Under the pieces are notes generated by a model. The model had not been told where the DNA came from. It ran no database searches and saw nothing but the letters and a program-made list of their open reading frames with translations. A stretch of 63,796 nucleotides of DNA, the filler included, from Diploschistes diacapsis (taxonomy: Eukaryota): the NCBI GenBank assembly GCA_023645945.1. It is 14 parts of 14 records of this genome, joined end to end, with 100 filler letters (N's around TTAATTAATTAA, not from the genome) between each part and the next. Parts side by side here need not be neighbours in the genome. Positions count along the whole stretch, not along the records: positions 1 to 22,081 come from JALAIB010000291.1; 13 more parts are not named here. One strand, written 5' to 3'. A program made the position numbers and the translations under genes. Shown piece by piece: positions 224 through 55,774 of the stretch (position 1 is its first letter; each line of letters begins with the position of its first letter).

Positions 224-2840
224 ATGTCTTATAGAGCGGTAGGTGATCTGCTTCCTTTATTTAATCTTGGAAGGGTTTACATCTGGCAGACACTGATCTC
301 CCTCACATAGGTCGCCGCTGCCACCCCTTTGGCTCGATCGCTCATTCGTGCGAGCCCGCGTCGAAGCCTTGAGCGTTCTCAATACAATCAGCCCGCGTTT
401 CGCCATTCCTCAACAACTGTTTCCGCCTTTCATACGAACCTCCAAGAGCCAGCGCTGCCTAACAGCGCGCCTGGGAAGAAGTTGACAACGCCACAAACGC
501 TGACGGAGAAGATCCTTCAACGCTATTCGGTCGATCTTCCGATGGGCAAGGTTGTCCGAAGCGGTGACTACGTCCAGATTCAACCTCACAGATGCCTCAC
601 GCATGATAATACCTGGCCTGTGGCCATGAGATTCATGTCCACAGGTGCTACCAAGATCAAGGATCCTGCTCAGCTTGTCTTTGCACTTGATCATGATGTA
701 CAGAACACGAGCCCCAGTAACTTGAAGAAGTACGATCAGATACAGGAGCTTGCGAAGAAGCATGGTGTCAACTTTTTTGGCGCAGGTCATGGGATCGGCC
801 ACCAAATCATGGCAAGCTTCTCTGCATCGATTTCATACCAGGGACCTTTAGTTTGCTAACGGATGCGTAGGTTGAAGAGCTTTTCGTTTGGCCAGGAACC
901 TTATGCGTTGGATCTGACAGCCACAGTAACATGTACGGAGCTCTGGCAAGCTTGGGAGTGGCCTTGGTCAGGACCGACGCGGCCGGAATATTTGCTACTG
1001 GGAAGAGTTGGTTCCAGTGTCCCCCAGTCGTGCAGGTGAATCTTCTAGGCACACTACCCCCAGGCGTTCGCGGCAAGGATGTTATTGTTGCGCTTTGTGG
1101 GCTCTTCCCACTGGATGTGCTGAACCACAGCGTTGAATTTATGGGATCGGAGGAAACCATGACTAGTATCTCCATGGACGACAGACTGACAATCAGTAAT
1201 ATGTCGACTGAGTGGTCTGCAACATCCGCAATGGTATGGCACCTGCTTGAGCTACAGTCTGCATTTCCATGAGCCCGTCTAATTGGTCTTCCTATAGTTT
1301 CCGATGGATGCGATACTAGAATGTTGGCTCCGATACAAGGCTACAGAGGCAGCAATGCTAGAGGATCGAACGACTCGACAACGGATTACGCACGAAATGG
1401 TTGACGAACTCTTTTCCAACCCTCTCCGATCTGATCCCGGAGCGCACTATGCAAAGAAACTCTACCTTGACCTCTCTACTCTGTCGCCTTATATCTCTGG
1501 ACCTAACTCCGTCAAAATCTCGACACCACTGCATGACCTCGCTACAAAAAACATCAAGATAGACAAGGGATACATTGTAAGCTGCACTAACTCGCGAAGC
1601 TCAGATCTGAAGGCTGCAGCCAAGGTATTTCAAGCTGCCGCCGAGTCAAATGGTGGTAGAATCCCCAAGATTGCAGATGGTGTTAAGCTATACATTGCAG
1701 CAGCTTCAGCCAGAGAGCAGGCTATTGCTGAGGATGAAGGTGACTGGCAGACCTTGGTCGAGGCTGGAGCTACCGTGCTCCCACCTTCATGTGGCCCATG
1801 TATCGGACTGGTAAGTAGTCACTGCTCCCCGTGTGGAATTTCGTGTGGAATTGATGCTGAGTATTAATAATACGTAGGGCACGGGTCTGCTAGAGGATGG
1901 CGAGACGGGAGTCTCTGCATCAAATCGCAATTTCAAGGGCCGTCTCGGATCAAGACGTGGGTTCTCCTCTTTCTATTTCAATCATGTTTGTAGCATTTCA
2001 GAGGACTGACAGCGAGAAGTTGCTCATGCGTACCTTGGTAGCCCCGAGGTTGTGGCTGCGAGCGCCCTGAACGGCGTTCTTTCAGGTCCCGGCGTCTACA
2101 AGATGCCGGAGACCTATACTGGCGTAGAGTACGGTTACGGCACCGAAAAACCTGCAACTATCGAAAACCAGCTCGGCAATGCCCTTGAACAGCTCGAGTC
2201 TCTTATCGACAGGGTTCAGATGACTGCTCGTATCGGCGATGATGGTGCCCAAGCAGTCACGAAGATCCTCCTAGGCTTCCCAGCCAAGATAAGCGGTGAA
2301 ATCGTCTTCGCTGATGCTGACAATCTGGACACCGACAACATATATGCTGGCAAATTTACCTATCAAGACGATATGACGACGGCAGATATGGGAAAAGTCT
2401 GCATGGAGAATTATGACCCGGAGTTCAGGTCAATCACAAAGCCCAACGATATCCTCGTCTCAGGGTTCAATTTTGGGTGTGGTTCATCAAGAGAGCAAGC
2501 CGCAACAGCTCTTCTGGCTAGGGAAATCCGACTTGTTGTGGCGGGCAGCTTCTCTAACATCTTTGTCCGGAACGGCGTTAATAATGCACTGCCTTGTCTA
2601 GAAGTGCCACGACTAGTGGAGCGTCTTCGTACTATCTTCTCAGAAAACAAGGTACCTACCCGGCGTACAGGCTGGACCCTGACATGGGATATTGCCCGGA
2701 GCATTATTGAGGTACAGGAGGGGGAGAATGGGGAACGCTGGGAGGAGAAGGTTGGAGAGTTTCCTGAGAATCTGCAGGAGATTATAGCAAAGGGGGGGTT
2801 GGTAGGATGGATCAAGCATGAGCTTGCGAAGGCTGCCTAA
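224..2840 (+). CDS. lys4: Homoaconitase (aconitase family, mitochondrial); 6 exons: 224-238, 311-811, 871-1233, 1298-1810, 1878-1956, 2020-2840
   Basis: Spliced protein has [60 protein letters not shown] and [12 protein letters not shown]. The N-terminus is Arg/Ser-rich like a mitochondrial presequence. All introns have branch sites and AG acceptors that keep the frame. Confidence 0.9.
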
Positions 2841-3725
2841 TAGACGGCAGTGTGGAGAGACAATGAACTCGATTCGGACTGGTTGTTCAATCTCAATGGA
2901 TGCGGCATGCGCACGTGACCTTCCGCTTCCTACTGTAGATGCCTTATGACTCCGCAGACATGGAGTCCAAGACCCTTGGCACGCACATGCTATATATACG
3001 CAGCGTGTACAAGTGTACGCAGTATATCCTCAAGGCTTTTATAGACTATTAAATAACTATTTAAATTCTCTATTATTTAAACTACTATTAACGTTAGGTT
3101 ATCATATAGAAACTAAGATAAGGGTCTATATAAGTGAGGCCTCCAGATGCGCCTTAATAATAAAGGCGCGGTTAACGTTAACGTGTTTCCCCATGAAACG
3201 GAACACCCCACCCCACGAAGCGGAACACTACATTATAATGTAACTGCGCTAGATTGAGCGCTTCCATATTTGTACGAAGCTAAATCTGTTCTCAACTACA
3301 CTACCCCGTTCTTCAGCCTTTAAGAAATACATTTTACGAAGGTGCAGGGATTGTGACCCGCTTCGTGGTGTGACCCGTTTCCTGGTGAAACACGTTAGTG
3401 AAGCTACGCTAGCTAATTATAGTGCAGCATTTGCGGTGAAGATTATGAGGCTGTGGGTGAATCGTAACACGCTCTCTCCTCGGCCATGCTGGCATTTTTG
3501 GCTTTTTACGTTTGACTGTACCTTAGACCGCACACATCCGCACGAACCTGATCCTAAAATTTCTGGAGAACCGATGCTGAACCCTCTCTCGGAACCAACC
3601 AAGACCGGTGCATATCTCGGGGTGCTAGGAAAGTTAAGAAGCGATCTTCAGCAGTCATAGTATCTGCAACGCGGTCGTTGCAGCACAGCCGTCAAGCAAA
3701 GGATATGTAAGAAGAACAGCAAAAA

Positions 3726-6542
3726 ATGGCTGCAGAACCGTCACAGGTGAAGGCGCATATTACGCAGCTATCGCGAAAGGTAAAGGGCCCATTCACTTCA
3801 TAAACTCACTAAAGTAGTACTGAATTCTGCGACTATAGATGTTCCCGTGCCGTTACGTCAGTGAACACGACTGCGACGAGGCCTTTCAGAGTCAGGTTGA
3901 GGCTTCCCACCATGCCATCCTCGGTCATCAGGTGGTACCCATCCACAAGACAAAAGCTGGACAATTCATATGCTTGCACGCTGAGTTTGGCTGCTCAGCA
4001 ACGTTTGAGACGACGACTCTTCTCACTACACATACTCAATCTGAACACCGAAAGGAAGCGTTTCCTTGCACACTTGCATAGAGCCGCAATTGCACAAAAA
4101 CGTTTTCACCACCATAAAGGGCATGGCCATGCATATCAACGCCAAACTTCGGCAGATTCGGGAACCCTGTCCTTCGGCAAAAGAGACGGGCTGCAAAGCT
4201 ACCTTCTCCAATGTGTGCAGCGCACGCTCACATGCCAGACATGTACACGGAGAGAAACCATACCCATGTCCATTGGCTGACGAGTACGATTGCACTGAGC
4301 GGTTCTACACTGTTGCGTTGGCTCAACGTCATGCTGGCATATGCCACAAGAAACTTGGATTTCCCTGTCCGCGCGCTGAGCAGCTCGACTGCATGGGTAG
4401 ATTCAACTCTAAAATAGAGGCGCAAAAGCATCTCCACGAGGAACACGAGCCGAACCCGTTTCCTTGTCCAGGGGCTGAGAAATACCAGTGCGAGAAACGA
4501 TTCCCCACATACGACGCTGCTCGAAAGCACATGGGAAGGGACCACGAGCGGTTTCCTTGCCCACGCGCTGAGGAACTTGGCTGCTCACAGACATTCTCCT
4601 TGAAGCTGAGCGCGACCAAACATGCTCGACTCGTGCATGACCATATCAAGTTCCCATGTCCATATGCAGATACAGCGGCTTGTGACAAGGTGTTTGCCTC
4701 AGTGGGTGGCGCGAGTCGGCATGCAAAATATCATACAAACCGCTTCCCTTGTCAACATCAGCATTGTGGAAAACGATTTCTCAATGCCCAGGAAGCTATC
4801 GAACATTCCCGCGATCCGCAGCATTCGCTCGCAGCTCTCTTCATCTGCACGCTTCAGGGGTGCCGAGGCGCTATTGCCGGTAAACGATACCTTGCACCAG
4901 CGATGAGAAGGCACCACCAGACACATGTCGAGTTCGGCGAGGTTGTACGTGGTGATGAGTCTTGTATATCGTCTGCGGAAGGATCACTACCAAGCAGTCA
5001 GCTATCACTCTTCTGGTCTATCCTTGAGCACAGTAGCATGGATTTAATTAAGACTGGTGATGGATGCAACGATGACGACATGCCTATTGAAGGTGACTGC
5101 GATGAGGCAGACGAAGAAGATGACACTCTCGCTCCCTGGGAAGAACAAAACAGCATCGAGGCCTCACCCGAAGAGCGTCGACGTCAGATTCACGAGTCAA
5201 ACACTGCCAAGTGGAGTAAGTCGTCCTTGCTTATTGAAGACTAACAGCAAGTTCCCGGAGTAGCTAGCCTACACTTTTGCCCTGTGGGTTTGACGAATCT
5301 TGGTCTCAAGTGTGTTGGACCGTCGATTCTCAAGCGTGAGATTGATGAACCATGCCCCCAACAGTGCCATAATCGACTTGGATACCGCACGCCTCCTTAC
5401 CAAGAAAAGACACGCAAGCAACTCTCACCGACTACATCTAGACTGTCGCTGCATCACATGCCACGCTGAGTATCGGGTGAGAGAATGTGTTGCGAAGAGT
5501 TCTCTTCATCTTCAAGTTCCGGGCTATCTATGCACGCGGCCAGGTTGCTCACGGCCTTGTATAGACGGTACTACGGGGTGTGATCTTCATCTTTGGGGTC
5601 TTTCGTTCGATTCCACCCCTAAAATCGACCTCCGACCTCTCCAGGAGGCGTTCAAAGCGACAACTTGCACAAGATGGGTTGCTTCTCCAACTTACGACGT
5701 AGTACGCCAAAGACTGTCGAATATCAGAGATGGCAAGCGACCTGGCTCAGATCTTGTCATCCTAGACGACGAGTACTCATTCGCTTCCAAACAACTGTGG
5801 GAATTTTCCCTTATCGAGCGAGTGTCAGGAAATGTTTTGATCAATACCACCATCGTACATCAGGATGGACTCGACCATACCCCAGTAGGTTCTCGCTATG
5901 TCAAAATGTGGAGCGAGATACAAGCCAAGAAGGTGTTTTCCTCAGGACGTCAGAACATCGACAGCATGACTGTACATCAAGTTGCTCAGAAGTTGAAGCA
6001 GACAGGCATCCATCCCGGAACAATCATCCTGGTATGGGCTGTCAACATTGGTGATTTGAGAATTCTGAGGAACTTCTTGGAATCTGCTGGGTATTTCGAC
6101 ATCCTGCCCCCTGACGAGAACTGTATACCGTTGATTCATGTTCTCCGTCCGAATCTGCCTGAATTCGGACAGAGGCCATTCCCCCTGAGACTTGAAGTCT
6201 TGTTCCCTGTTATGTTTCCTCGGCATCAGTTAATCGGACTCAATCATGCGGCGCTTGTCGACTGTCAGCAGACGCGACTGATCTGTATGGGGTTTGATCA
6301 ACTCTGTATGCCTGTTGAGAAGCGGGGGAAAGATTGGCAGCCGGAATCGGTTGCGAGGATTTCGCAGACTTCTATCCTTGATTGGTTAGGGAAGGGAAAC
6401 GAAACAGAGGAAGGCATGTGCATGTTTCTTACCTTGTGAGCATTGAGAATGCCAGCTGACTATTTGTATAGGGATTCACAAATGTGGGCACTCCTTTGTT
6501 AGGGGCCAAGGTGCGACGCTCAAGCGGTTGCGAAGATCCTGA
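3726..6542 (+). pseudogene. Multi-C2H2 zinc-finger protein fused to a C-terminal DEDDh (DnaQ-like) exonuclease domain; disrupted
   Basis: ATG 3726 and intron 3780-3838. About 11 repeats of F/Y-P-C-x4-7-C-x3-F-x8-H-x3-5-H lie in ORFs 3839-4081 and 4066-5244. ORF 5300-6439 has LVILDDEY, GDLRIL and NHAALVDC. There is an in-frame TAG at 4079-4081 and apparent frameshifts near 4104 and 5356. The intron at 5216-5263 and the last intron at 6414-6471 are inferred. Confidence 0.7.
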
Positions 6543-7474
6543 AGCTATGGATCAAGATTGGACAAATGCTTGTTGTTGTGGGCGTATCCGCGTTCTCTTG
6601 AAAGATGGTGAAGGCCGGTTGCCAGGTTGGGTGAGCGACCAGCATGAGGATGACACCAAGCGCCTCCGCCTCAATTGGCCCTTGTGTAGTTTGTCAGCAT
6701 ACTAGGTTCGGATTTAAAGCATTCCTCGTGATTTAACACGGCCGTGATCGGAGGCCTAGGCCTAGTACATGAAAGAGTAAAGACGCAACGGAAACAGAAG
6801 TGTTTCCATAACTTAGTAGCTTCTGTTGCGGCTTCGGTTGTATTTATGGCCACCGAGAGCCTGGGACGACGCGGAGCCAAAGATAGCGTACCGCGGCCCT
6901 AAATTCGGCACTCAACTTGGTTCCCAGGCAGCAGCGCCAACACGGGCGCATAATCCATCCAATCACCCCAGCCCTCACCCCAGCTTCACCCAGCTTCACC
7001 CCGACGCCGCCAACAGCGCACCCGGCCCTCACCCGGTCGCGCGAGCTCAGGGCAGCGACGCTCACCCGCCAGAACCGGACAGGAAATGGTCTTGGCATCT
7101 GCCCCGAATCCTGCTCCCCCCCATTATGAATCCGCATTTAGAACCAAGCCCAACGAGAATTACAGTCCTATATAGTCTTGACGGTCAACGGCGCCGATGG
7201 TCATGCTCAAAGTAACATTCGAGCATCTAATAACACAGGTTGATCTCAGAAAGGAAATTCAGAAGGGGAATATGAAAAGGGAGCACGATAAGGGTCATGG
7301 ATGATCCTGAGCAAGGCGTGTAGTACCTCTTAGGAAATACTTAAATTTTTTTATAGCAGCTCAAAGTAGTTTAAAAATAGTTGAAACGTTTGTAAAGTAG
7401 ATAAGGTGGCAAGGAACGTCAGAAGATTTCCCCTGAGAGTAAAATATGGGTAGAAATATAACAGCCATTTGCAA

Positions 7475-8815
7475 CTAAATCTTCTTTCCGTCTACTCTTC
7501 CGTCGCTCAATGCCATCGCTGAAAGCTGTTCCCCCTCCATCTGCGTTTCTTTCACCTCCGTTTTGGCTGACTCTATTACCAGCTTTGCCATGTCCCTCTC
7601 TGTCTTGTCGCTCTCCACCTTCCCCCGGTCCTCGGCAATGTGAGTCGCCGTTTGCTTCTGCAGTTTCTTTTCCACCGACCTTCTCTTTGCATCTCCAAGT
7701 TTCTTCAACCTTTGTGCTTCGTCCGTCGTGTTCCTCAAGTACATTTCCACGAAGACCAGGTGCAGGACACAGCACACCCAGGCCGCTGGGCCAAAGCTCA
7801 GACTCATAGCTGGCGCGAATTGGTCAATCCTCTTGGATATTACATTCGCCATCAATGTCGCCGTCGCATTTTGAGAGATTGCCGCGTATCCACCCAAAGG
7901 ACAAGTCAGTATCGCATTGAGCGGCGTGGCTGGATGCGTCATTCCCACTAGCCCAGGAGCGCACTCACTTCCATAGGTAGCGAAAAAATCTGGCTTCCGT
8001 GTAACGTTGCCGATATCGAGGCCAATGTTCAGCATGTAGAAAACTTGTGCACACGGCAACTGGATGGCGGCATAGTAGTCTATTCCGGGCGCGCCGAATT
8101 TCCGCAAGAGCGAGATGATGATGGCGTACGAGATCATAAAGGGGCGCATACTAACGATACCACCCATCGTAACCCATGTTCTCAGCATCCATGCTCTGTG
8201 CTCGTCTATGCGGTAGCTCTTTATTGCCTTGTATGCTTGAAAATGTCCCGCGAGGACGAACAGCGCAAGGGCCCACATCGCCAACCGCGCACTGGGCATC
8301 CCACCAAAGGCACGGTCCGAAATCATTATCGCAGAGATAGCAGCCGTGATGCCGCACGCCCAGCACGTATAGCCAACTGTACGGTGAACCTTAGGTCGAC
8401 GGGCCCTGATAGATGGAACGAATTGGGTGATGGCGAGCAGAGAGCCGGAAAAGACGGACCATAGGTGCAGGTAGATGCCGATCTGCCAGCGAGACCAGGG
8501 TTGAGTGTACCAATAGCATTCGCCTGGCGACGCATCACCGGCATCGGGGTCACAGAAGAAAGTGGAAACGAGGGCGACGCGGGAACGGAGAAGGACGAAA
8601 AGGAACAGTGATCCGGCTGTCCAAAGAACTAAAGAAGGTATTAGTGAGAATGTTGGAAAGAGGGAAGAGGAGCTGGATGGAAAAAGGTGGGAATCACAGT
8701 ATTTGAGGTTGGAGCGTTCAGTGAAGCCGAGGCGGCGGGAAAGTGTACTCATTGTCCGCTCGGTGAAGGAGGGCAAGGTCGAGGAGGTCATGGTGGTTGA
8801 CGAAGCTAATATCAT
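7475..8815 (-). CDS. DUF2306-like multi-pass membrane protein (start may be one of the downstream Mets)
   Basis: 446-aa intronless ORF with several hydrophobic segments and His motifs LHLW, QFVPSIR..PKVHRTVG and RIDEHRAWMLRTW typical of DUF2306. Confidence 0.75.
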   Translation of the reverse strand: MILASSTTMTSSTLPSFTERTMSTLSRRLGFTERSNLKYCDSHLFPSSSSSLFPTFSLIPSLVLWTAGSLFLFVLLRSRVALVSTFFCDPDAGDASPGECYWYTQPWSRWQIGIYLHLWSVFSGSLLAITQFVPSIRARRPKVHRTVGYTCWACGITAAISAIMISDRAFGGMPSARLAMWALALFVLAGHFQAYKAIKSYRIDEHRAWMLRTWVTMGGIVSMRPFMISYAIIISLLRKFGAPGIDYYAAIQLPCAQVFYMLNIGLDIGNVTRKPDFFATYGSECAPGLVGMTHPATPLNAILTCPLGGYAAISQNATATLMANVISKRIDQFAPAMSLSFGPAAWVCCVLHLVFVEMYLRNTTDEAQRLKKLGDAKRRSVEKKLQKQTATHIAEDRGKVESDKTERDMAKLVIESAKTEVKETQMEGEQLSAMALSDGRVDGKKI

Positions 8816-19682: not shown

Positions 19683-21000
19683 ATGGAACCAATTCACCTG
19701 CCAAAAGCATCACAAAGGCGTTCAAAAATGCTCTCCGAAGCAAGTTCCACTGGTACAAGGTCTACTTCCTATCAATCAGCCTTGCTAGCCAATATGCAAC
19801 TCTTGTCTCTATTAGACGACGAAGCAGAAGCCAGCATACCTCCTCCTGATGCCGATAGTCTTGAACTTCGCCTGGGAAGAATGTTGTCGGTTGGGTCTGT
19901 CATATCGATCACTTCTAGTATTGCCGAAGAGCAAGATGCTGGTGCAAAGACTGGGGTAGAAGCAGCGCCCTATAAGCTCATCGGTTGGGGTGCTTGTGGC
20001 GCAGTTTACACCCAAGATGGATCCACCAAAGTATTAAAGCTGGCAAAAACCGATGATGAGCAGCTGTGGATCGACTTATCGTATGATGACCAGAGTATGG
20101 GAAGCCTTCGCGCGCACGCCAGAGGTCTCTGAAGAGACTTTTGTCCCTCAGCCCGAGTTTTTTGTGCCAAGAACTGAGACGAGATGGTGGGAGGAAAGAG
20201 AGGCCAACATTCCTTCCGGTGTGGTGGACTTGCCCACTGCCGCTCTATCATCGGAGCGTATCTTTCCTCTCCCGCAAGAAATCCGCTCCGTATTAATCGA
20301 AAAATTCTGTCAACCACGGAACCGTCGGAAGGCCTTGGAAAGCGAAAGCAACAAAGACTGCTTAGTGAGGATATATTTAGGCAGCATGAAGGGGAAAGAC
20401 GGCGGTGCTTTTTTCTCACTGAGAAATTTTAAGTTACACTTGAATCACATGATCGATCTAGTTATGGATGTTCTGGAACTGGCGCGCTACGTTGGAGGGG
20501 CGTTAGCAACACTACACTGGCAAGCAAAGGTGGATGGAAGAGACGTGGAATTCGTGCTTGGAAGCTCACCTACGAACCATATCTATGGGCCCCTTACCTC
20601 GGATGAATTGGACCGACTGCCAGTTAATACCTACACTGAGTTGAAAGTGAGAAGCAAGGTCGACTTTGGGAGAAGAGTCCTACGACTCTGGGTGATAGAT
20701 TTCAATCAGTGTGCTTTGATGAGCATGGACGACGCTGGCGTTAGTGCTGCAGTTGGGGCCTGGAGCATTAATGATCCCTATTTTCCTAAACCAACTTCAG
20801 ATACGCAGCAAGAAATCGAGGTCTGGAACATATTTATTCTTCGTTACCTCGAGGTAGCAACCCGGATTCTGAAAAACGAGACGGTAGCAATCCAGAAGCT
20901 ACCAAGAAAGTTCCTTGCTGGAATTGAAAGAGAACATAAGCATAAGGTGAAGGTGCAGAAAGCAGCTGCAGCGAAGTCTTCGACTGCCGCTCCCATATAG
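19683..21000 (+). pseudogene. DUF3669-like atypical protein-kinase-fold protein, split by a single +1 frameshift near 20076
   Basis: ORF 19674-20132 has IGWGACGAVY and VLKLAK. ORF 20053-21000 has FSLRNFKLH, LHW...DGRDVEFVLG, LWVIDFNQC and NDPYFPKP. Removing one T from GAC-T-TAT joins LWID to YRMMTRVW. Confidence 0.7.
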
Positions 21001-22081: not shown

Positions 22082-22181
22082 NNNNNNNNNNNNNNNNNNN
22101 NNNNNNNNNNNNNNNNNNNNNNNNNTTAATTAATTAANNNNNNNNNNNNNNNNNNNNNNNNNNNNNNNNNNNNNNNNNNNN
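22082..22181. other. Artificial contig linker N44-TTAATTAATTAA-N44; also at 23721, 45797, 47436, 49075, 50713, 52350, 53986, 55622, 57257, 58892, 60527, 62162
   Basis: An identical 100-nt spacer with stop codons in all six frames occurs 13 times. Confidence 0.98.
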
Positions 22182-22774
22182 GTCTTATAGTGCTTATAAT
22201 TTTTGAAAATATTAATTAATCTGATCTTATAGGACCATTTTTATATATTGTTAATCTATTCGGTGATAATATTTGTTCTTTAGATCTAATAAAACACGCG
22301 AGGATTAACGATCGTTTAAAATACGTCGATATTACTTATTATTACATACGAGATCTTGTTAAGCAAGAACGTATTAAGGTATCTTATATTTTTATCGATA
22401 AGATAATTATTAACGGGCTTACGAAGCTATTAAATTATTCGAAACACGACGCTTTTATTAAGGAACTCGATTTAATTCAAAAGATATTCAATTAAATTAT
22501 ATAAATATACTGAACGATTCCGTCTATAAGAAAATATTAAATAAATAGATAAAAGATATGACTGGAAATTCGATTAAATTTTAATCAAAAGTTTAGTTTA
22601 GTTGAATTCCGAGGTTCAATTTACCTGAACTTTTTGGAACTCTGATTAGACCGATCGGGAGTAGTGTTAGTAATAAGATTTAACGAAATTTATAGGATAT
22701 AAAAGTCTGCGCAGTAGGATATTTTCATAGGATAAGACCTCTAGACTTCAATATATCCATTACGTTGCCAAACA
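22182..22774 (+). mobile_element. RIP-degraded Ty1/Copia 3' end: RNase H remnant plus 3' LTR (about 22535-22774)
   Basis: Translates as ...KYVDITYYYIRDLVKQERIKVSYIFIDKIIINGLTKLL (Copia KHIDIxYHxxR...ADGxTKPL). The LTR ends CATTACGTTGCCAAACA. Confidence 0.8.
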
Positions 22775-23984
22775 ATATATTATATATATTTTAGAATTAA
22801 AAGCGAACCTTATATCGGAATAAAAGTTATGTAAGGCAGACTTACAGAAAAGTTTCGACAAAAACGGCCTATATCTACATAATGGCGAAAGACGGATCAT
22901 TCTTATATGTAAGAAAAAGAATGAAATCTATTACATAAGCAAAATTGTCAAAAAAGAATATACATATGTTACAAAAGCGTACCCAACGAAAATAATTAAA
23001 CCTGAACTGAACCCAAAAGTTCAATCGAACAAAACTAATTATCAATTATAACATGCGCGTATTACCCATATAGGATCCAAAAGGCTTCAGTACCTTCATA
23101 AAATAATAATTTTTATTAATCCGATTCGAGTTATGCCACATACTTATAAAATATACCAATTAACTAAAGCCTGACAGCAGATAAACCATACGCTCGTTAA
23201 ATGTCAGTATAGACTCAAATTGTAATGTGTGTAGAAGATGGATTACTAAAAGCTAGGTAGGCAGCGAGCCCTTATAGCTACTACAATAGCTGTTAAATGG
23301 ATGAAAGCCCAAGGACATCATTACTCATGACATCACGAGCGACGCCGGCGAGGGCAGGAGTAAGCGACACCCTTAATAATTTAATAATTATTACAATATC
23401 CACCGACATAAAATGCTTATGTCCATATAAATAGTGTTTTAAATAAATACTAAATGAGCGAGATAAACCCTCGACATTTAGTTTTAAAACATTTTAATAA
23501 TATTTCTTATATTATTTCCTTTTTTTTTATCTTTAAAGCAATTCTGTTTTTTTATTAAACTTGTTTCTATTTCGTAGACATAACTCTAATCCTATATTCC
23601 TAATAATTCTGCTTTTATAGCGTTAGCGTGTTTTATTTCGAATTCGAGGATCCGGTTTATCGAATATCGTTATAATTCTCGATCGGTGATTTATATGTTA
23701 TCGATAGTATTGTATTTTAANNNNNNNNNNNNNNNNNNNNNNNNNNNNNNNNNNNNNNNNNNNNTTAATTAATTAANNNNNNNNNNNNNNNNNNNNNNNN
23801 NNNNNNNNNNNNNNNNNNNNGAAAGGAGGAGGAAGAGGGAGGGGGAAATCGAACAGAGCCAATGCACAGTTGCATCGCTTCGCTCTCCTACCGTACCCGT
23901 GCTGGCTGGTGACTCCCAACGCAGAGCGAAAGAGCGAGCGGGAGGGATACTCACGGGCCTGCGGAAGAGTAGGGAGGGGATGCT

Positions 23985-39112: not shown

Positions 39113-40077
39113 TTATGGAGATCCCTTCTTATCCTTCATACGAACGCTCATAGGGATAAACTGCAAGGATGAGAGGCTACTGGTAATAACATCAATTTCT
39201 TCATCCGCAGTCGACTCTTCGTGGAAGGCTTTTATTCCTTGTTGCGCTGGACATGCCGCCTTCCATCGGGTTGTTTGATTTTGATTCCGGTTATCTGAGG
39301 CTTGTGCAGACACTTTCCTTGCGCTGATACGATCCTTCTTCGCGTTCACGGAAGGCTGCTCTGAAGTCGGAGCCATCGGGTTCGTATAACGCTGCCCATT
39401 CTTGCCTTCGGCCACTCTGGCTTGCCAATTTGAATCTCCGACCTCGCTGACTCGGCGCCGACGTCCATTGGGTTGTGTCTTCCCTCCTCGAAGCATTGAT
39501 GATTGACGACCGATACCTCTATCAACCATTCTGAAATCATAATTACGTGGATATTTGTGCTTGTCTATCATGTGCAAGCGGCGTTTCTCCGCTGTTGAAG
39601 TGATTTTCTCACAGTCGGCAAGAAAACATCTGTACTAGATCTCCAAGTCAGCAAGTTCCCTAATTGTCATATACAAAAGGAGAAAGAAGGCCATTTTACC
39701 GTCTTCTCTCCTTTATCCTTTTGTGCTCCTACGAGTGGGTTGTGGCGTTCGTTCAGATGGAGCTCAAGCAGCCATGAAGAAGGAAGGTTGGCAGTACACG
39801 CTGAGCATCGATTGGTATGCTCTTGCGCGTAGTGGATGTCAAAGGCTGCGGCGGATGACAGTGTCAATGGCGCGTGGGGCGGCAATGTGCATTGCATCGG
39901 GTGGAGATTGGGAACTTTGTCGGCAGATGTCGAGGGTTGAGGCGACGTAGAAGTGCGGAAGTACTTGGGATTGTGAGCAGGCGCGTTGTATACTGGATCT
40001 GGCACTTTCCCTGCAGGTTGCTGTTCCATAGTACCTGACTCTGCGACTGGAGACGTGGATCTCGAGCGTTTTGGCAT
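39113..40077 (-). CDS. ZNF511-like C2H2 zinc-finger protein; exons 40077-39700, 39634-39113
   Basis: CTLPPH..L......FDIHYAQEHTNRCSACTANLPSSWLLELHLNERHNP...KTYRCFLADCEK..ST.EKRRLHMIDKHKYPRNYDF, with C-terminal LSSLQFIPMSVR. Confidence 0.82.
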
Positions 40078-45796: not shown

Positions 45797-46695
45797 NNNN
45801 NNNNNNNNNNNNNNNNNNNNNNNNNNNNNNNNNNNNNNNNTTAATTAATTAANNNNNNNNNNNNNNNNNNNNNNNNNNNNNNNNNNNNNNNNNNNNGTCT
45901 ATATCAGTATACGCCAGTTTATTTATTATAAGTATAACTTATTCCGAAATTAATATAATATTTTTATTTAAAGATTCTAAAATATCTTTTATATATTTAA
46001 TTATCTTTTAAACATCCGAAATTAATAATACTTTTATTTTATATATCCCAACAATCGTCCCTTTTAGACGAGCGGCCATCGTATTAATTAGAAGTTGTTA
46101 AATCAATCCGACGTTCTTATTTATTAGTATAATAAAGACGCTTATTATCTTTATATAATTCTTAGGGGATCTATGAATGCCTTCGGGATAAATTAATTTC
46201 GTAAACTGTTCGCTCTATATCTTGTTAATTTTTTTAATTATATTGCTTATCCGTAGTAACTTTTGCCTGTAATTTCGCGTAAGCTCCTTTACCGATTCTT
46301 ATTCCTTCTCATAATCTACTTCTAATACACCTGCCGCAATATATGAACTCTCTCTTTCAACCTCTTCAACAAGCTATCCTAGGTAATCTACCGTAAGATA
46401 AACTATTACCTTAATCTTGATTCTAGTTTCACAAATTAAGGGGTATCTGTCCCTTAACGGCTGCTTTCTTACATAATTAATGAAATTCTTTATCGTATTG
46501 AAGCTACTTCCATCTGCCAGTACAATTAATATTTAATAGCTTTTAGCTTGAATATGACTTCTTAACAGAATTAGGGGAGAAAAGGAGCTCGATGCTGGTA
46601 CGAGAGGTGTGGTTTCGGTTATTATGACGATGGTTCGTAATTCAATAAAATCTCTAAACGTAACTAGCAGGATCTTAAAATAAAGATCTCAGAAG

Positions 46696-47435
46696 TGTTA
46701 CAATCTAAGGTACTGTTCGGCAGTATTTGGCACGCAACAGCTAGTCGGGCACTTCCCAGCTATTCCTTATATATAGTCCAATCAGGATGACACGGGTCAC
46801 GTAATGAATAAAAGATCTTAAAAACCATTTTACCCAGTCGTAGGTAGAAAGGGAGAACGATAATTCTACTTATCTATTTATTTATTCTGCTAAAGAAGCT
46901 GTTGGTTATATAAAAACGTCGCCATGGTTTCTATAAATCTAGAACGTGTTTACTTTTATAAACATCCTTAGTCATTATTTAGGATTAATTTATATTCGTT
47001 ATCTTCTATTATTAGAAAGCTTTCTTTTTAAAAATAATTTAAGACCTATAACTATTCTATCTTCTTCTTTTATTATACTTCTTTTCTAACAGAAACCAAA
47101 CCTATCTTAATCTTACTCGTGTATACCTTATATAAATAGAGATTATAACACTTAAATACTTTTAAAAATAAATATTACTGGTAGCATAACCGAGCGATCG
47201 TTATCGATGGCTAAATCCGCACTATTTCGCGTATTTAGGATAATAATACTACTAAATAAAACCGATATCTCTATAAAGGACACTACGGAAGCTAAAGGCG
47301 ACGACCCCGGAAATAACGATGAACCTAACGATAACAAATCGAATAAAAAACTTATTATAAAAATTATAAAATTAATAACGTTTCACGGAAACCGAAAGAA
47401 ATTAAAATACTAAATACTTTAATTTTCAATATACT
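46696..47435 (+). mobile_element. Ty3/Gypsy family B: 5' LTR (46696-47150) plus start of gag, RIP-mutated
   Basis: TGTTA...TAACA termini. Downstream ...KLITFHGNRKKLKY*IL matches gag FxGDRxKLxxW. Collinear with 59722-60526. Confidence 0.8.
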
Positions 47436-47535
47436 NNNNNNNNNNNNNNNNNNNNNNNNNNNNNNNNNNNNNNNNNNNNTTAATTAATTAANNNNNNNNN
47501 NNNNNNNNNNNNNNNNNNNNNNNNNNNNNNNNNNN

Positions 47536-47701
47536 TAATTTATATTCGTTACTTCTATCATTAGATAGTAATCTTTCTAGAGATCAAAAGAGACCTGTTA
47601 CCGATCTACTTCTTCTACTGCTTGCACTCCTCTTCTAACAGAGACCAAACCCACCTTGATCAATACCTCGTGTCTACATTATAGAGATAGAGATCATAAC
47701 A
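47536..47701 (+). mobile_element. Gypsy family B LTR 3' part
   Basis: Matches 46987-47150 and ends GATCATAACA. Confidence 0.7.
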
Positions 47702-48164
47702 CTCGATAATCGAAAATAAGTTTTTATTATTTAGACTATTTACGCGGACGATTATACGTTAAATAATAATTCTTGAAATCGAGATTAAGATACTTCGTAC
47801 GGCGAATAAAACACTTAATAAACGAAGAAGGATTAAAAAAACGCGTGTACGAGCTGAAGAATTATTTAACGTATTAGGAATAATCGCATTATAATCTTTA
47901 AAGATCGAAATTCGTATAAAAAAGACTAATATATCTAAAAATAAAAGTCGTACGAAGGAAATCGGATTACGCGTACGATGTTATAATAAATATAATTAAT
48001 CCGGGCATAATGCGCGAATTTATAAAATAAAATTTATAACTTCTAAAAAAGATATTAATATAATAAATTATCGTAAGAATTGATTGCGTAAATGTAGTTA
48101 TAACTCGTACGAATCGAAAAGGGTGTCCGCTCGCTATGAGTATCCGCTCGCTATGCATATACGT
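47702..48164 (+). mobile_element. pogo/Fot1-type DNA transposon family 2, 3' end
   Basis: RIP-altered C-terminal CCHC knuckle (VRCYNKYN*SGHNARIY). Terminus with duplicated TCCGCTCGCTATG ending ATACGT|TA. A second copy lies at 55480-55621. Confidence 0.65.
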
Positions 48165-48643
48165 TAATGCAAAATGTGAGAATAAGGTATGGCGATGGCT
48201 ATTCAATTACAAGATTTATTTGCAGTAGTTGATGTATTGGTTAAATAAATTTGTAGAATTATCGTGTGGGCTGAACTCGGCCAATCATTAAGTAAACTTA
48301 AAAAGATCATAATTAAAACGATATACCTCAAGATTTTTTTCAAAATTACCGAATTCGAATTCGAATTCAATAAATATTAGTATAACGTGTTTGACGGGGA
48401 TTTCCTAGATGTTACGATCCGAGGTTCCGACCTCGTCATGTCTCAGCCATGGATTGTATCTAGTTACACTTCGCTAATAAAATTGGTAGAGTTACGTGAC
48501 TCACTTACTATTCGCGTTTAAAGCTTTATTTCGAGTTTATAATCGCTTGCGCGAATTTAATCTGTTATTAACGCCGACATCTAATATAATAAAAAGGTCT
48601 CGCCTGCTTCGTCGTTATTTAGAATTCTATTAATAATCGTATA

Positions 48644-49074
48644 ACGTGTTTCACGGGGATTCCGGCCACCCCCAGATTCCGGCCACCTCAAATCACTATC
48701 GTTAATATTCTCCGGTTTTTAGATACAACCTATTCGTCGTAATTAGAACTAATCGATTTAAATCGAATCTATCTTTTTTCTTTTTCTTTTTCTCGATTTT
48801 AAAAACGCGACGACGTTTTTTACGCGTTATAAATCGTTTCGAAATTATTTAACTTGACTTAACTCGAATTGTTATTTTAAGAATCTCGTCTATATTAAAT
48901 ATAAAACGATCTTTTAATTCGATTCGTTTATTTAATTTACGTTTTTTACGATTATTAAAAAACGTTTTTTTTTCGGGTTTCTTTACGAAGCGTTATGAAT
49001 TTAATATACGTCGATTTAAATATACGGATTATTCGATTCGAATAACGTCGAATCGGGTTAATTAATTTTAAAAC
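48644..49074 (-). mobile_element. pogo/Fot1-type DNA transposon family 1, 3' end
   Basis: TA|ACGTGTTTCACGGGGATTCCGGCCACCCCCAGATTCCGGCCACC terminus; reverse complement of about 50850-51286. Confidence 0.8.
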
Positions 49075-50812
49075 NNNNNNNNNNNNNNNNNNNNNNNNNN
49101 NNNNNNNNNNNNNNNNNNTTAATTAATTAANNNNNNNNNNNNNNNNNNNNNNNNNNNNNNNNNNNNNNNNNNNNGGTCTGGGCATAGGGAGGAGGATTGG
49201 GGGGGCGGTACCTGATGCTATATCATATCACATTTCGTCGCATGAATACGACAACGGTAGGGAAGCCCTCGTGGTGGAGCGAAGGCCGTTTCGTCGCAGA
49301 GAGAGTACAAATAGGCACCAAAAATCTCGATAAGAACCGAGAAGTCGCCAGCCAGCCAGGCTCGTTATGAATGCTGCTACTGTTGTTAGATTGATATGGG
49401 GGGCCAAGGAAGGCCACAGTTCGTTAGCCAGGTCTTTCCTCTCGCGCCTATAGAAGTTTGCAGTCGGGTCCCGTTCCTAGCATCCATCTCGTATCCTAAT
49501 CCAATCCAATAAATGACAAGTCAACAGCGATGGCCACCCAGCCCCTCTGCAGGGAGGGCATCTTCTTTTAGGGGGACACGAGTCTGACAGCAGCCGACTG
49601 GTCTCGGAACTTTCTTTTTTTTACTACTCTTCAGCATCAGAGGATGGCTCTCCGCGCGTGCTGCTGTGCGGACCTCCTTGAGCGAGACCAGTCTGGCGAG
49701 CGTGACCGGGTACGGGAAATGCGATGGCGCTGTACAGGTGGAACAGGCCCAGATACGTTAGTTGTTTCCCAGTGCAGTACTGAGCACGCAGTGGGTTCTG
49801 CACTCGTGGGAAGAACGAGTGAGGGGAAACACTATATGCCCAGAATGTATTTCACAATACCTGGAAAAGCTTGTCCACTTGTAGCTCCCTTCCTCAAGCT
49901 TTTTAACCCTCTGGCGTCCCATGGGAACTGCTGTATCCAGCATAGCTTCTTCGGATTCAACAGCCGGTAACCGAGAGGTAAGCTATGCCAGAAAGTTTCG
50001 TTTGTAGCGAAGGACCACGGCCTTGTCCGCAGTCGTGGTCTTTTTGATCATCATAGTGTGAATATTGAGTGAGGCCGTAGATGGCTGGGGTCGTTGTATA
50101 GCGGCATTGCGGCATTATTCGATGGCGGGAATGTCTTTGGTGGTGACAGCAATGATGCCGTTGAAAACCCATGATAAAAAGGTGGTGATAGTGTTCGCAA
50201 GCGATAAATCGATACAGAAAAACGATAGAAGAGCCATAGCACTCTGGTCATCCCATGACTTGCAAACTCTGGGGCACCCCAACGCAACAATATCCTCCCC
50301 CCCTCATACAACCTTCAGCATCGCCCATCTCGTCCTGTAGAATAAGACCCCTCTTTCATCTCTTCTCAACAGCTGCGTTAACAATCCACCCCGCCTGTCT
50401 TTCCACCAAGCCAAGCCATGTCAGGCTGCACTTCCTCTTCCGCTCCCCCCCGCCCTCTTCTCTCTCTCCGCCGCCGCAGCAGCCGCAGCTTTATCGGCCT
50501 CTTCTCCAAGGATCTTGGAGGAGGCCATGAACCTGTTTCCGAGGCAGAAAGTCAGCACAGAACCCTCAAGCAAGTGTACAAAAACCATGAGATAAAGTAA
50601 AGCTCAGCCCGCTCTCCGCCCCATCCAACGCTCCTTCCAACCAGAACGTGTGAAATCAATCCCTCGGCGTCCTCCTCGCCCTCAAAAAAAAAAAACCTAT
50701 TTCCCCAAAACCNNNNNNNNNNNNNNNNNNNNNNNNNNNNNNNNNNNNNNNNNNNNTTAATTAATTAANNNNNNNNNNNNNNNNNNNNNNNNNNNNNNNN
50801 NNNNNNNNNNNN

Positions 50813-51286
50813 GCGAAAGGCCAATAAAAAGTTTAATTAAACGTTACGAGCCGTTTTAGAACTAGTTAGTCCGATTCGACGTTATTCGAGTCGAGTAATC
50901 CGTATGTTTAAATCGACGTATATTAAGCTTAAAACGTTTCGTAAAGAAAACCGAAAACAAAAAACGTTTCTTAATAATCGTAAAAAATATAAATTAAATA
51001 AACGAATCGAATTAAAAGGTCGTTTTATGTTTAATATAGACGAAATTCTTAAAACAACAGTTCGGGTTAAATCGAGTCGGATAATTTTAAAACGATTTAT
51101 AACGCGCAAAAAACGTCGTCGCATTTCTAAAATCGAGAAGGATAAAGATAAAAAAGATAGATTCGATTTAGATCGATTAGATTCTAATTGCGACGAACAG
51201 ATTATATCTAAAAACCGTAAAATGTTGGCGGTAGTAATTTAAGGTGGCCCACTTCTGGGGGTGGCCCGGTTCCCCGTTAAACACGT
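50813..51286 (+). mobile_element. pogo/Fot1-type family 1, transposase C-terminus plus right TIR
   Basis: SPIRRY...RKENRKQKTFLNNRKK...KRIELKGRFMFN resembles a Fot1-type tail; ends CCCCGTTAAACACGT|TA. Confidence 0.8.
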
Positions 51287-51288
51287 TA

Positions 51289-52349
51289 TATAAGTTTAAT
51301 CGAATATTTATATTGAACTATTTTCTAAAGAACGTTAAATTAAATAGACATATGGATTATTATATTATTAGATATAATCTCTTTTACCCGCTTTTTTTTA
51401 TCTTGATCGCGTAATCGTCGAATGCGATTCAAAAACGTCTGAAATTTAATTAAACTGAATTCTTGATTGAATATAATATTATTTATTATCTTGACCCGCG
51501 ATATAATAATATAAAAAAGATTAATTGTAAAGTTTAGTAAAGATAAATCTAAAACTATTCGTTCTAATGTCAGGCCCTGAGATTTATGTACCGTAATAAT
51601 AAATGTTAGTATTATAAATAATATCGTACGTTTATAATACGTATTATTATCCTTTTTTTAACTTCTTATAAGAGGTTTTATAGGAACGATACGCTTTTCT
51701 TAATTATTTTTGAATAGTTCAGGTCTTTCGTAGGTATGTTGTATAGTTATAAGTAGATAAGTAAATAAATCTTGGATAGGATTATCGTTAAGACGTTATA
51801 CGATATCATATAAATGTCTAATAGTGCTATTAATTAGGCCTTATTTCGTAATAAGATTCGCGATAAGTATAATCTAAACACCTTTTATTAAAAGGATCTC
51901 TTAATGTAGGCCCTTAGTTTCGTCTTTATTAGTATTTATAATAATTGGTATATTATGGCGAGCCTTTATGCGTATTATAGGACGTCATAGGCGTTTTAAT
52001 TAATCGATATTATGTTTATAAATATATTTTTTGTATGGAAGTAAATGTAGAATTAAATTAAATTTTTAAACTTCTTCCGGCGGTAATCTTGTCTTAATTT
52101 TAGCGTTAAGGAATTCGAAAGTAGAATCCGAAATATTATCTATTCCGAATATTCGTAGTTTAAATAAGATCTTTTTAAATTTCCGGTTACGATTATTATC
52201 GTTTTTCTATCGTATGATTTAATTAAGTATCACGATTTTGTTGAAAAGCGCGTATAATTATTAACCATTTATGATTTTAGGTAAGGTATTCGTAGTAAGA
52301 TCGATATCGAAAAGAATCTTTTTATCGATAAGAAATAACTAATAAAAGT
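51289..52349. mobile_element. Heavily RIP-mutated repeat debris, unassigned
   Basis: Very AT-rich and TpA-rich, with residual C mostly in CpG; no readable ORF. Confidence 0.45.
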
Positions 52350-52449
52350 NNNNNNNNNNNNNNNNNNNNNNNNNNNNNNNNNNNNNNNNNNNNTTAATTA
52401 ATTAANNNNNNNNNNNNNNNNNNNNNNNNNNNNNNNNNNNNNNNNNNNN

Positions 52450-53052
52450 GCGTATTGCCTTTTATTATATTAAATTCTTATTATATCAAATTATCGTTAT
52501 ATAACCTCGTAATTTATCGTATTAAATCTATTAAACTCGATTTATCTTATTTAAATATTAATAATTTTAGGAAATCGTTTGCGAAATCGCGATACCTAAT
52601 ATTTATCGATAGGTTGAAGATTCGCGATTATAACTTTTAAATTCGAACCGAATCGAATACGTTCGCGTCGAATTTTTTCGGCTATATTTATTATTAACGT
52701 AAACGATGCAGGAAAGTTAGTTTATATAAAACGTATATTTTATCGTATTAATGTCTTTTTTTCTGAATTTAAAAAGATTTAAGTCGTTTCGTGGTTATTA
52801 AAGCATGATTAAGCTTTATTAAGTCGATCTATCATGATCGATCGAGATATTTTAAATACGCAGGTAGCTTCTCGAATGTTAATATATTATTATAATTTTA
52901 GGGCCTATAAATAATCGTTAATATTAAATTCTATTAAAATCGAATTATTACGATGCGAGGTAGTCATTGTTGAGAAAAATCGAATATAAGATAAAAATAG
53001 TGATTTGAGGTGGCCAGAATCTGGGGGTGGCCGGAATCCCCGTCAAACACGT
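52450..53052 (-). mobile_element. pogo/Fot1-type family 1, left TIR plus transposase N-terminus (psq HTH and CENP-B HTH)
   Basis: TIR ends at 53052. The minus strand reads NIREATCVFKISRSIMIDRLNK, then TNFPASFTLI and QPIDKY*VSRFRKRFP. 59581-59721 is another copy of 52612-52751. Confidence 0.8.
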
Positions 53053-53579
53053 TACTATTAATCTATTCGGTAATACCATTGATTCTTTAGATTCAATAAA
53101 GCACGTAAAAATTAACGATCGTTTAAAGAACGTCAATATTGATTATTATTACGTACGAGATCTTGTTAAGTAAGGACGCATTTAGGTCTCTTATGTTTTT
53201 ATTAATAAAATGGTTGTTAATAAATTTACGAAATTATTAAATTACTCGAAACACGACGTCTTTATTAAGGACTCGATTTAGTTTAAAAGATATCTAATTG
53301 AATTATATAGATATACCGGATGATTCCGTTTGTGGGGAAGTGTTGAATAAATAGATAGAAGGTATGGTTAAAAATATAATTGAGTTTTAGAAGGAGGTTC
53401 AGTTTAGCTGAACTCCGAGGTTTAGTTTAGCTGAACCTTTTGGAATTCTAATTAGACCGAATAAGGAATAGTATAGGTAGTAGGGCTTAGCGTATCCCAC
53501 AAGGATAAAAGTCTGTAAAGTAGGGTAACCTCCTAGATAAGACCTCTGGACTTCAATATATTCATTACGTTGCCAAACA
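53053..53579 (+). mobile_element. Ty1/Copia 3' end: RNase H remnant, PPT and 3' LTR 53341-53579
   Basis: KNVNIDYYYVRDLVK; PPT GTGGGGAAG immediately before TGTTGAA; LTR ends CCAAACA. Confidence 0.82.
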
Positions 53580-54603: not shown

Positions 54604-54848
54604 TAGGCTGGCCGTTCCGTGCCACTGACACTGACACTGACACTGACACTGCACTGCAGTAAAAGCACGGACACGGACACGGACACCGTAGTTAAAAAAT
54701 CTAAAATATTGATACTAACACTGACACTGCACTGCTGTAGAAGCACGGACACGGACACCGCAGCTAAAAAATCTAAAATATTGATATTAATACTGTTAGT
54801 GTCCGTGTTACTGACACGGCCGTGTCAGTATCAGTGACGGCCAGCCTA
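54604..54848 (+). mobile_element. Complete 245-bp hAT MITE with 8-bp TSD AACGGGAT
   Basis: 12-bp TIR TAGGCTGGCCGT...ACGGCCAGCCTA. Direct repeats at 54596-54603 and 54849-54856. Internal ACACTG/ACACGG hexamer arrays. Confidence 0.92.
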
Positions 54849-54896
54849 AACGGGATTACGACGCTTACGATATTATTATACTATTTAAATGTATAA

Positions 54897-55100
54897 TGTT
54901 AGAACGCCCCTACAGGAACAGGTGCTACACTACCGGGGGCTGGGCCTGATCCGGAAGGACTACGTGTAACTGGGCATCTGTAGGCTGAATGGTTCAGATT
55001 CGAAAAGGTAAGGAAGGAACTATCTAGGTGGGAGTAGGGCACAAATAAATAGTGGGTGCCAGCCCTACCGCCCTACGGGGTTCAACCCTTGAACCCACAA
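54897..55100 (-). mobile_element. LTR fragment related to Gypsy family A
   Basis: Shares CTACACTACCGGGGGCTGGGCCTGATCCGG...CTGGGCATCTGTAGG with 56118-56429. Confidence 0.65.
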
Positions 55101-55142
55101 ACGTTCAGGATGTTCCAAATGTTGTTTAGGGACAATCGGTCC

Positions 55143-55768: not shown

Positions 55769-55774
55769 TATAAT

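Follow-up and report, generated by a model that had tools for sequence, protein, structure and literature searches.

Near one end of a 63.8-kb stretch of DNA from Diploschistes diacapsis (assembly GCA_023645945.1; the whole stretch is referred to here as the window) lies a four-exon gene on the plus strand at 3726-6542, whose reading frames spell out a tandem array of 11 C2H2-type zinc fingers, an acidic linker, a Cys/His module and a C-terminal domain predicted to fold as a DEDDh (DnaQ-like) exonuclease. The best explanation of this locus, held at a probability of roughly 0.6, is that it is a recently decayed copy of a finger-exonuclease gene conserved in the Pezizomycotina; that figure also takes in the function proposed for the gene, a finger-targeted trimming of nucleic acids. 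The parts of the gene are as follows.

3726-6542 (+), the whole finger-exonuclease gene, ATG to TGA; from the sequence, the spliced joints in RNA contigs X15 and X16, and homologue alignments
3726-3779, 3839-5215, 5264-6413 and 6472-6542 (+), the four exons
3780-3838 (+), intron 1, 59 nt, GT..AG; joint 3777>3837 (cut +2) in X15 and X16
5216-5263 (+), intron 2, 48 nt, GT..AG, with a branch-site-like ACTAAC; joint 5215>5264 in X15 and X16
6414-6471 (+), intron 3, 58 nt, GC..AG; joint 6411>6470, with 3 ambiguous letters, in X16 only
3848-3928 (+), finger 1, C-x7-C ... H-x4-H; regular expression
3971-4048 (+), finger 2, C-x6-C; regular expression
4067-4149 (+), finger 3, broken by a TAG and a frameshift; sequence compared with relatives
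4168-4248, 4267-4347, 4366-4446, 4465-4545, 4558-4638 and 4657-4734 (+), fingers 4-9, all C-x7-C; regular expression, AlphaFold2 (AF2) model with predicted local distance difference test (pLDDT) about 90, Foldseek
4750-4824 (+), finger 10, C-x4-C, H-x5-H; regular expression
4846-4926 (+), finger 11, C-x4-C-x15-H-x3-H; sequence reading
4927-5215 (+), linker holding an acidic run as well as conserved LSLFWSIL and NTAKW motifs; sequence and alignments
5264-5600 (+), conserved Cys/His module (GLKCVGP, EPCP, RCxxC, CxxxxC, CxxH); conservation
5687-6331 (+), predicted DEDDh (DnaQ-like) exonuclease domain; AF2, VIA, Foldseek and conservation
5765-5767 and 5771-5773 (+), ExoI D and E; 6053-6055 (+), ExoII D; 6245-6247 and 6260-6262 (+), ExoIII H and D; all intact in the window
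6472-6542 (+), last exon, with a basic tail ending KRLRRS; sequence and homologue C-termini

Evidence for the exonuclease domain comes from predicted structure and from the conservation of its motifs. An AF2 model of 5357-6436 (alignment A2, 69 sequences) reached a pLDDT of 88.9 and a predicted template modelling score (pTM) of 0.86, and its comparison with 48,161 chains by VIA-align returned 51 chains at Z>=8, the best 50 of which are DEDD exonuclease folds or known inactive derivatives. The top matches, over model residues 111-325, were the exonuclease domain of S. aureus DinG (Z 13.4), RNase T (12.9) and the Pol III epsilon subunit (12.4), followed by a TREX1 homologue (12.3) and 3'hExo (12.1). 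The matches listed by Foldseek are likewise DEDD-type exonucleases or DNA polymerase proofreading domains, among them ISG20L2, DexA, Pan2 and ExoI, although the scores are weak and only one match, the best (REXO2, E 9.7e-4), falls at E<=0.001. The closest ESM Atlas clusters are RNase_T (PF00929), with scores of 0.88-0.89 that serve as leads only; the gathering score of Pfam RNase_T is not reached, and the domain is therefore placed at the level of superfamily or fold only. The catalytic residues lie in LVILDDEY (5753-5776), GDLRIL (6050-6067) and NHAALVDC (6242-6265), and are kept across alignment A2 (D137 in 68/69, E139 in 68/69, D233 in 67/68, H297 in 64/67 and D302 in 65/67), as are flanking N-H and Q-Q-T-R-L positions. 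Predicted secondary structure fits the three motifs, which fall at the end of the first strand and then at the starts of helices 232-242 and 299-316. The initial annotation of this DNA had proposed a DnaQ-like C-terminal fold and had named modelling and Foldseek as the way to check it; an RNase H-like/DnaQ fold is what these returned, in agreement with the VIA matches and the conserved catalytic residues. Taken on the models, the finger-exonuclease architecture with its DEDDh fold is very probably correct.

The array upstream was delimited by a six-frame search of the whole window with the expression C-x2-7-C-x12-H-x3-5-H, which gave 11 matches, nine of them in the finger-exonuclease gene and two in another gene at 39557-39807 (-). 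Fingers 3 and 11, which the expression missed, bring the nine to 11. Eight (fingers 1 and 3-9) have a C-x7-C knuckle, finger 2 has C-x6-C, and fingers 10 and 11 have C-x4-C, so that the earlier count of about 11 tandem fingers, most of them C-x7-C, was accurate. The linkers between fingers are 4-7 residues long (4-6 among fingers 4-9), and one of them, H-GEKPYP-C, is near-canonical. The classical spacing (C-x2-4-C-x12-H-x3-5-H) fits finger 10 only, finger 11 having 15 residues before its first His, and Pfam zf-C2H2 scores in the window are weak (15.7-17.4 bits against a cut-off of 25.2), with some relatives exceeding the cut-off (e.g., P0089 at 67.3 bits). An AF2 model of fingers 4-11, built from a 24-sequence alignment, has a mean pLDDT of 88.6 and a pTM of 0.47, the latter in keeping with fingers arranged as beads on a string. 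Each modelled finger consists of two short strands forming a beta-hairpin, a 12-residue helix, and an extra one-turn helix within the long knuckle, and the predicted model thus holds the beta-beta-alpha fold with its Cys2His2 set in tandem. Foldseek against the PDB matched this model to 59 chains at E<=1e-3, and those listed are all tandem C2H2 arrays, the best being DNA-bound CTCF (E 1.3e-9), ZFP568, PRDM9, TFIIIA, WT1 and YY1, with one WT1-RNA complex included. The fold model and these matches together argue that the fingers are genuinely of C2H2 type, with an unusual, enlarged knuckle. A TRAF/SIAH-type reading of the "PCP...GC" fingers was tried and rejected: Sina_ZnF scored E 0.068 in the window (14 bits against a cut-off of 32) and E 0.0055 in P0018, and the last ligand is His instead of Cys. 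The ligand set of TRAF zinc fingers is Cys-Cys-His-Cys.

The acidic linker and the Cys/His-rich region that had been described between fingers and nuclease are both present in the sequence. The acidic run of the linker is DDDMPIEGDCDEADEEDD. CITC, CTRPGC and CDLH, which had been picked out as the Cys/His region, are parts of the conserved module upstream of the exonuclease core, where C32 is kept in 52/59 sequences, C35 in 55/60, C59, C64 and C75 each in 41/43, and H78 in 44/46, with further conserved cysteines just upstream in GLxCxGP and CP. The eight candidate ligands would, by our reckoning, be enough for two zinc ions, and to judge from this conservation the module probably holds two.

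That all these parts belong to one gene follows a course of reading frames and introns. The stop-to-stop open reading frames (ORFs) at 3839-4081, 4045-5244 and 5294-6439 on the plus strand lie in different frames and together make up a single gene, with its TGA at 6540-6542. The end originally placed at 6542 proves right, being where the stop codon of the last exon ends, and the repair of the frame said to be needed is explained by three real introns, as revealed by spliced RNA contigs, and by four lesions, described below. These contigs, X15 and X16, come from two metatranscriptome studies, and were compared with the window together with two DNA runs, X2 and X3. The joint of intron 3, shifted by +2 within its three-letter ambiguity, reads as GC..AG; at the site of intron 2, 11 nt are inserted in relatives. 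The gene stretch was found, at least in part, in 20 of the 24 sequencing runs listed, six of those 20 being RNA libraries. Spliced contigs in two RNA runs show real transcripts of close relatives, while their presence says nothing on the level of expression. An intact protein would be about 880 aa long, and its basic tail has counterparts resembling KR.LRS at the C-termini of homologues. A search of 2800-7600 against Rfam gave no match.

An exhaustive HMMER search of 1.84 billion representatives placed the gene in a sizeable family, with 371 clusters at E<=1e-3, 230 at E<=1e-10 and 76 at E<=1e-30. Its members carry only the names "hypothetical protein", "zinc finger protein" or "C2H2-type domain-containing protein", and those with a named source come from Fusarium, Trichoderma, Xylaria, Thozetella, Coniochaeta, Zopfia, Karstenula, Byssothecium, Trichoglossum, Lambiella and Acephala; five species that were checked fall in five classes of Pezizomycotina (Dothideomycetes, Geoglossomycetes, Lecanoromycetes, Leotiomycetes and Sordariomycetes). 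Among the full-length fusions are P0058 (863 aa, with an identical 11-finger layout) and proteins of Zopfia (784 aa), F. proliferatum (700 aa) and Coniochaeta (715 aa). At least one strict finger occurs in 22 of 33 family proteins examined that are 500 aa or longer, and in 21 of these 22 the fingers lie N-terminal of the exonuclease, the remaining protein (P0203) being without the exonuclease motif. Of the other long family proteins, several seem to be gene models cut short at the N-terminus; a weak Myb match occurs in P0118, and in P0095 the fingers are C-terminal. Constant across the family are fingers 10 and 11 (the one such pair, with C168, C176 and H189 invariant in alignment A3), the linker motifs, the Cys/His module and the exonuclease, whereas the upstream fingers differ among relatives in number and in type, C-x7-C or classical. 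Fusion of fingers and nuclease is the family norm, and the claim of the initial annotation that the two form one gene is borne out by the 21 of 22 relatives and by an uninterrupted single ORF in the relative L009. It had also not recognised the architecture as that of a characterised fungal gene, and the fusion was indeed found under no descriptive source name or paper: no description of a C2H2-DEDDh fusion in fungi was found in the full-text literature, subscription journals lying outside its coverage, and passages of a survey of the RNase H-like superfamily (PMC3985635) contain none.

Against this background of conservation, the copy in the window carries four lesions, three of them in finger 3.

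4079-4081 (+), lesion 1, in finger 3: TAG in place of TGG (Trp in P0200)
4103-4106 (+), lesion 2, in finger 3: +2 T in a TTTT run
4147-4149 (+), lesion 3, in finger 3: Leu codon CTT in place of the second zinc-binding His
5355-5359 (+), lesion 4: +1 C in a CCCCC run, which breaks the Cys/His module

Finger 3 is uninterrupted in P0200, a relative 94% identical. The two additional T are present in the window, X2 and X3, and these 2 nt are absent from the RNA contigs X15 and X16; at position 4148 X2 and X15 have A whereas X3 has T, the change from His to Leu being common to the window and X3. Such nested sharing, with the insertion in three sequences and the substitution in two of them, points to successive real mutations and not to assembly error. 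The extra C of lesion 4 is missing in all six comparators (X2, X3, X15, X16, L001 and L002). L001 is intact from finger 4 to the end of the exon-3 ORF, and relatives about 97% identical in DNA are intact. In the comparison of the window with L001, the fingers give a ratio of non-synonymous to synonymous rates (dN/dS) of 0.33, from 17 non-synonymous and 14 synonymous changes, and the exonuclease part one of 0.43, from 13 and 9; on few changes, these values speak for constraint during most of the history that the two sequences share. In other close relatives the breaks lie at other places: single nucleotides are deleted at 4940 and 5103 in X3, and in P0201, P0075 and P0076 the gene models pass into translations out of frame, which match ORFs of the window at 4610-4906, 5565-5702 and 5623-6054. 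An intron that would remove both the TAG and the frameshift from finger 3 was considered and rejected, as the sole upstream GT (4060) yields a 21-nt intron or the wrong frame. With the lesions in finger 3 and the extra C in the Cys/His module the whole protein could hardly be made from the window copy, which is probably a pseudogene. The initial annotation had seen the frame breaks; the decay of this copy beside intact, spliced and near-identical relatives had been overlooked.

Loss of the gene is met again in a second clade. Here L009/L014 has an intact, intronless ORF of 983 codons with 10 strict fingers, L008, 99.9% identical to L009, has one frameshift, and L010, L011/L012 and L013, whose proteins are 90-94% identical to that of L009, have at least three frameshifts each. 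At the DNA level, L009 and L012 share about 96% identity over the gene and a neighbouring homoaconitase gene, and the structure of the homoaconitase ORF is the same in both. Intact and broken copies among close relatives, in two separate clades, suggest a gene that is dispensable and has been repeatedly lost, and on these sequences the finger-exonuclease gene does appear dispensable. Both types of the L009 clade were also observed within one assembly, and this twice (L008 with L010, and L013 with L014), where L014 equals L009 exactly, L008 is one frameshift away from it, and L010 and L013 have several frameshifts; two types per assembly would be expected if the sample contained two related fungi, or if the types are two haplotypes.

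Several findings weigh against a decayed finger-exonuclease gene. No Pfam family was found at E<=1 for the exonuclease region (5294-6439), none of 21 relatives had a Pfam exonuclease family at E<=0.01, an NCBIfam scan of the region gave no family, and neither phmmer against the PDB nor the 69-sequence profile against PDB sequences gave a match; as no sequence model recognises the domain, its assignment rests on predicted fold and motifs. By our reading, residues typical of base contacts are not notably frequent at helix positions -1, 2, 3 and 6 of the fingers. With respect to decay, the extra C falls in a homopolymer and occurs in no sequence but the window and its probable source run, so that assembly error is possible there; translation from an ATG at 4123, in the downstream frame, could yield a protein without fingers 1-3 in those relatives that have the two additional T only; and the dN/dS estimates are based on few changes.

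As to function, a mechanism of finger-tethered 3'-5' trimming may be put forward, tentatively and as something suggested by the models. The finger array would bind a specific nucleic-acid sequence, in double-stranded DNA or in structured RNA, as TFIIIA and WT1 do, and would thereby keep the exonuclease close to a 3' end, which the exonuclease would trim by means of two metal ions held on D-E-D-D and of the His as general base. The basic tail of KRLRRS type suggests that the action would take place in the nucleus, a localisation that we infer from the tail. The fold of the fingers matches mostly DNA-bound arrays, and TFIIIA and WT1 bind RNA too. A role in targeted decay or in genome defence, which the initial annotation had raised, may be entertained on the same tentative footing. 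A bolder and decidedly unlikely extension is that the family constitutes a natural, evolvable system of zinc-finger-guided exonucleases, in which lineage-specific arrays direct the DEDDh nuclease to particular DNA or RNA, the candidate targets including nucleic acids of invading or selfish origin, as well as particular transcripts or ends in the nucleus. If that were true, selection of a conflict type would explain both the variable arrays and the repeated recent loss in separate clades.

Other explanations have to be set beside that of a decayed gene. Sexual-stage A-to-I mRNA editing is known in filamentous ascomycetes, and the window gene might on that account be functional, with its frame breaks being homopolymer assembly errors and its TAG restored to UGG by such editing. 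Both indels do lie in homopolymers (TTTT at 4103-4106 and CCCCC at 5355-5359), all five catalytic residues are intact, and the TAG derives from an ancestral TGG, its A having U at -1 and falling, by prediction, within an 8-nt hairpin loop (4055-4105; -13.2 kcal/mol, z -2.2, equalled by 7 of 200 shuffles), a context that matches the preferences of fungal restorative A-to-I editing given in PMC11156358 and PMC10776026. However, the two additional T are also found in the independent DNA runs X2 and X3, and the change from His to Leu in X3; frameshifts are beyond repair by editing; and different frameshifts occur in other close relatives (P0201, P0075 and P0076, and X3 at 4940 and 5103). The fraction of sampled words present in the Logan contigs of the probable source run is 1.00, but these are the same data and no independent support. 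A functional window gene is accordingly thought improbable.

A reading slightly less probable again concerns the family rather than the copy, namely that the protein is a transcription factor or another DNA- or RNA-binding regulator whose exonuclease-like domain is a non-catalytic scaffold, as in Maelstrom, Exuperantia and the RNase H-like domain of ESRP1. Inactive exonuclease-like proteins are indeed among the structural matches (ESRP1 at Z 11.1, Exuperantia at 10.6 and Maelstrom at 8.4-9.3), and the sources call the relatives zinc finger or C2H2 proteins only. Inactive derivatives of exonucleases do not usually retain the catalytic residues, whereas here the five DEDDh residues are kept in 64-68 of 67-69 relatives, along with the conserved N-H and Q-Q-T-R-L that flank them.

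The setting of the gene bears on its history. A homoaconitase gene adjoins the finger-exonuclease gene in four lineages (the window, L005, L009/L014 and L011/L012), its coordinates being as follows.

311-2840 (+) of the window, homoaconitase gene, upstream neighbour; Pfam Aconitase and Aconitase_C, TIGR00139
3975-5867 of L005, homoaconitase gene
11600-14186 of L009, homoaconitase gene
11439-14019 of L012, homoaconitase gene

It lies upstream on the same strand in the window and L005, and downstream and convergent in L009/L014 and L011/L012, and this synteny indicates an old, vertically inherited locus with one inversion. Across these lineages the exonuclease is 44-48% identical to that of the window as against 48-68% for the homoaconitase, so that the exonuclease part is not dramatically faster and its description as fast-evolving was dropped. 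Homoaconitase belongs to lysine biosynthesis, and plain synteny and a functional link are both conceivable for the pair. The other neighbours in the window are genes for a DUF2306 membrane protein, a bHLH factor, Rox3/Med19, a dehydrogenase and homogentisate dioxygenase.

The gene does not appear to be mobile: six family proteins used as tblastn queries matched the 63.8-kb window at the finger-exonuclease locus only, and neither terminal repeats nor multiple copies were found within it. The suggestion of the initial annotation that the gene might belong to a mobile or selfish element as its cargo or effector, or be a genome-defence factor that such an element carries, has very little to recommend it, for although finger arrays vary among relatives, pseudogenisation recurs and similarity to L001/L002 ends 231 nt past the stop codon, there is one copy in 63.8 kb, no direct or inverted terminal repeat flanks the gene, the flanking ORFs scanned yielded no transposase or other domain typical of such elements, and the neighbours are housekeeping genes, with homoaconitase adjacent in four lineages. 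The AT-rich patches said to border the gene do exist (GC 0.38-0.41 at 2851-3300 and 0.37 at 7201-7500) and are ordinary intergenic DNA. The similarity to L001/L002, which are 97% identical to the window over the gene, breaks off at 6773, where the sequences point to a rearrangement or insertion of recent date immediately 3' of the gene, on the side of the window or of L001/L002. Beyond the breakpoint L001 (2636-4985) consists of unrelated DNA with a 14/31-nt minisatellite at 3360-3641 and without the DUF2306 gene.

Some further features of the window were observed. Upstream of the gene, at 3179-3397, lies a near-palindrome with arms at 3179-3211 and 3365-3397 (33 nt, 85% complementary) and a nested second pair of arms at 3209-3228 and 3353-3372, which could be a MITE-like insertion or a regulatory hairpin. 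Other zinc-finger genes in the window are a DUF3669 "zinc finger protein" ORF at 20038-21000 (+) and the ORF with two C2H2 matches at 39557-39807 (-). Pairs of masked 44-N stretches recur about every 1636-1639 bases, with 11 pairs at 45797-62261 and 2 pairs at 22082-23820, and look like a tandem array of a unit of about 1.64 kb; beyond 45021 there is no ORF of 150 aa or more.

Both domains of the finger-exonuclease family are textbook domains, and their conserved, transcribed fusion runs across the Pezizomycotina with no functional annotation. If the exonuclease is active and the fingers are sequence-specific, the family would be a natural counterpart of engineered zinc-finger nucleases, and a new route of targeted 3'-end processing or nucleic-acid clearance in fungi, among them plant pathogens and biocontrol genera such as Fusarium and Trichoderma; should the arrays further guide the nuclease to chosen targets, this would amount to a protein-only, sequence-addressed degradation of nucleic acids distinct from RNAi and RIP. 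Coexisting intact and broken alleles are natural knock-outs in which phenotypes could be compared, and as current libraries miss the domain, a profile model is merited for genome annotation.

In comparison with known systems, the domain resembles the DEDDh exonucleases (RNase T, Pol III epsilon, TREX1, ERI-1/3'hExo) in its predicted fold (Z 12-13.4 over 158-181 aligned residues, rmsd 3.0-4.2) and in having D-x-E, D and H-x4-D at the expected starts of strands and helices, but differs in sequence, with 10-15% identity and no match to PF00929, NCBIfam or PDB sequences; the N-terminal Cys/His module and 11-finger array of the window gene occur in none of the DEDDh enzymes compared. C. elegans CRN-4 (Z 10.3) and the coronavirus nsp14 ExoN (Z 8.7; one nsp14 match covers model residues 9-326) likewise join a DEDDh core to zinc-binding elements, the former acting in apoptotic DNA degradation and the latter in viral proofreading; their zinc modules, however, are single structural domains in place of a tandem C2H2 array, and there is no detectable sequence relation. 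CTCF, ZFP568, PRDM9, TFIIIA and WT1 share tandem beta-beta-alpha fingers, predicted here, with short linkers (Foldseek E 1e-9 to 1e-4, 19-29% identity), and also share a number and type of finger that vary among relatives beside a constant effector domain. The window gene departs from them in its C-x7-C knuckle with a one-turn helix, as against C-x2-4-C, in having, on our reading, Ala for the usual hydrophobic residue at helix position 4, and in that its effector is a nuclease. Engineered zinc-finger nucleases combine a C2H2 array with FokI, and aprataxin a HIT hydrolase with a C2H2 finger. Common to these and the window gene is the concept of a C2H2 module siting a nucleic-acid-processing enzyme, with no homology implied; the catalytic domains differ, being the FokI endonuclease in a man-made fusion and a HIT hydrolase in aprataxin. 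What is new here is a DEDDh exonuclease family that current sequence models do not see, set within a distinctive and conserved architecture.

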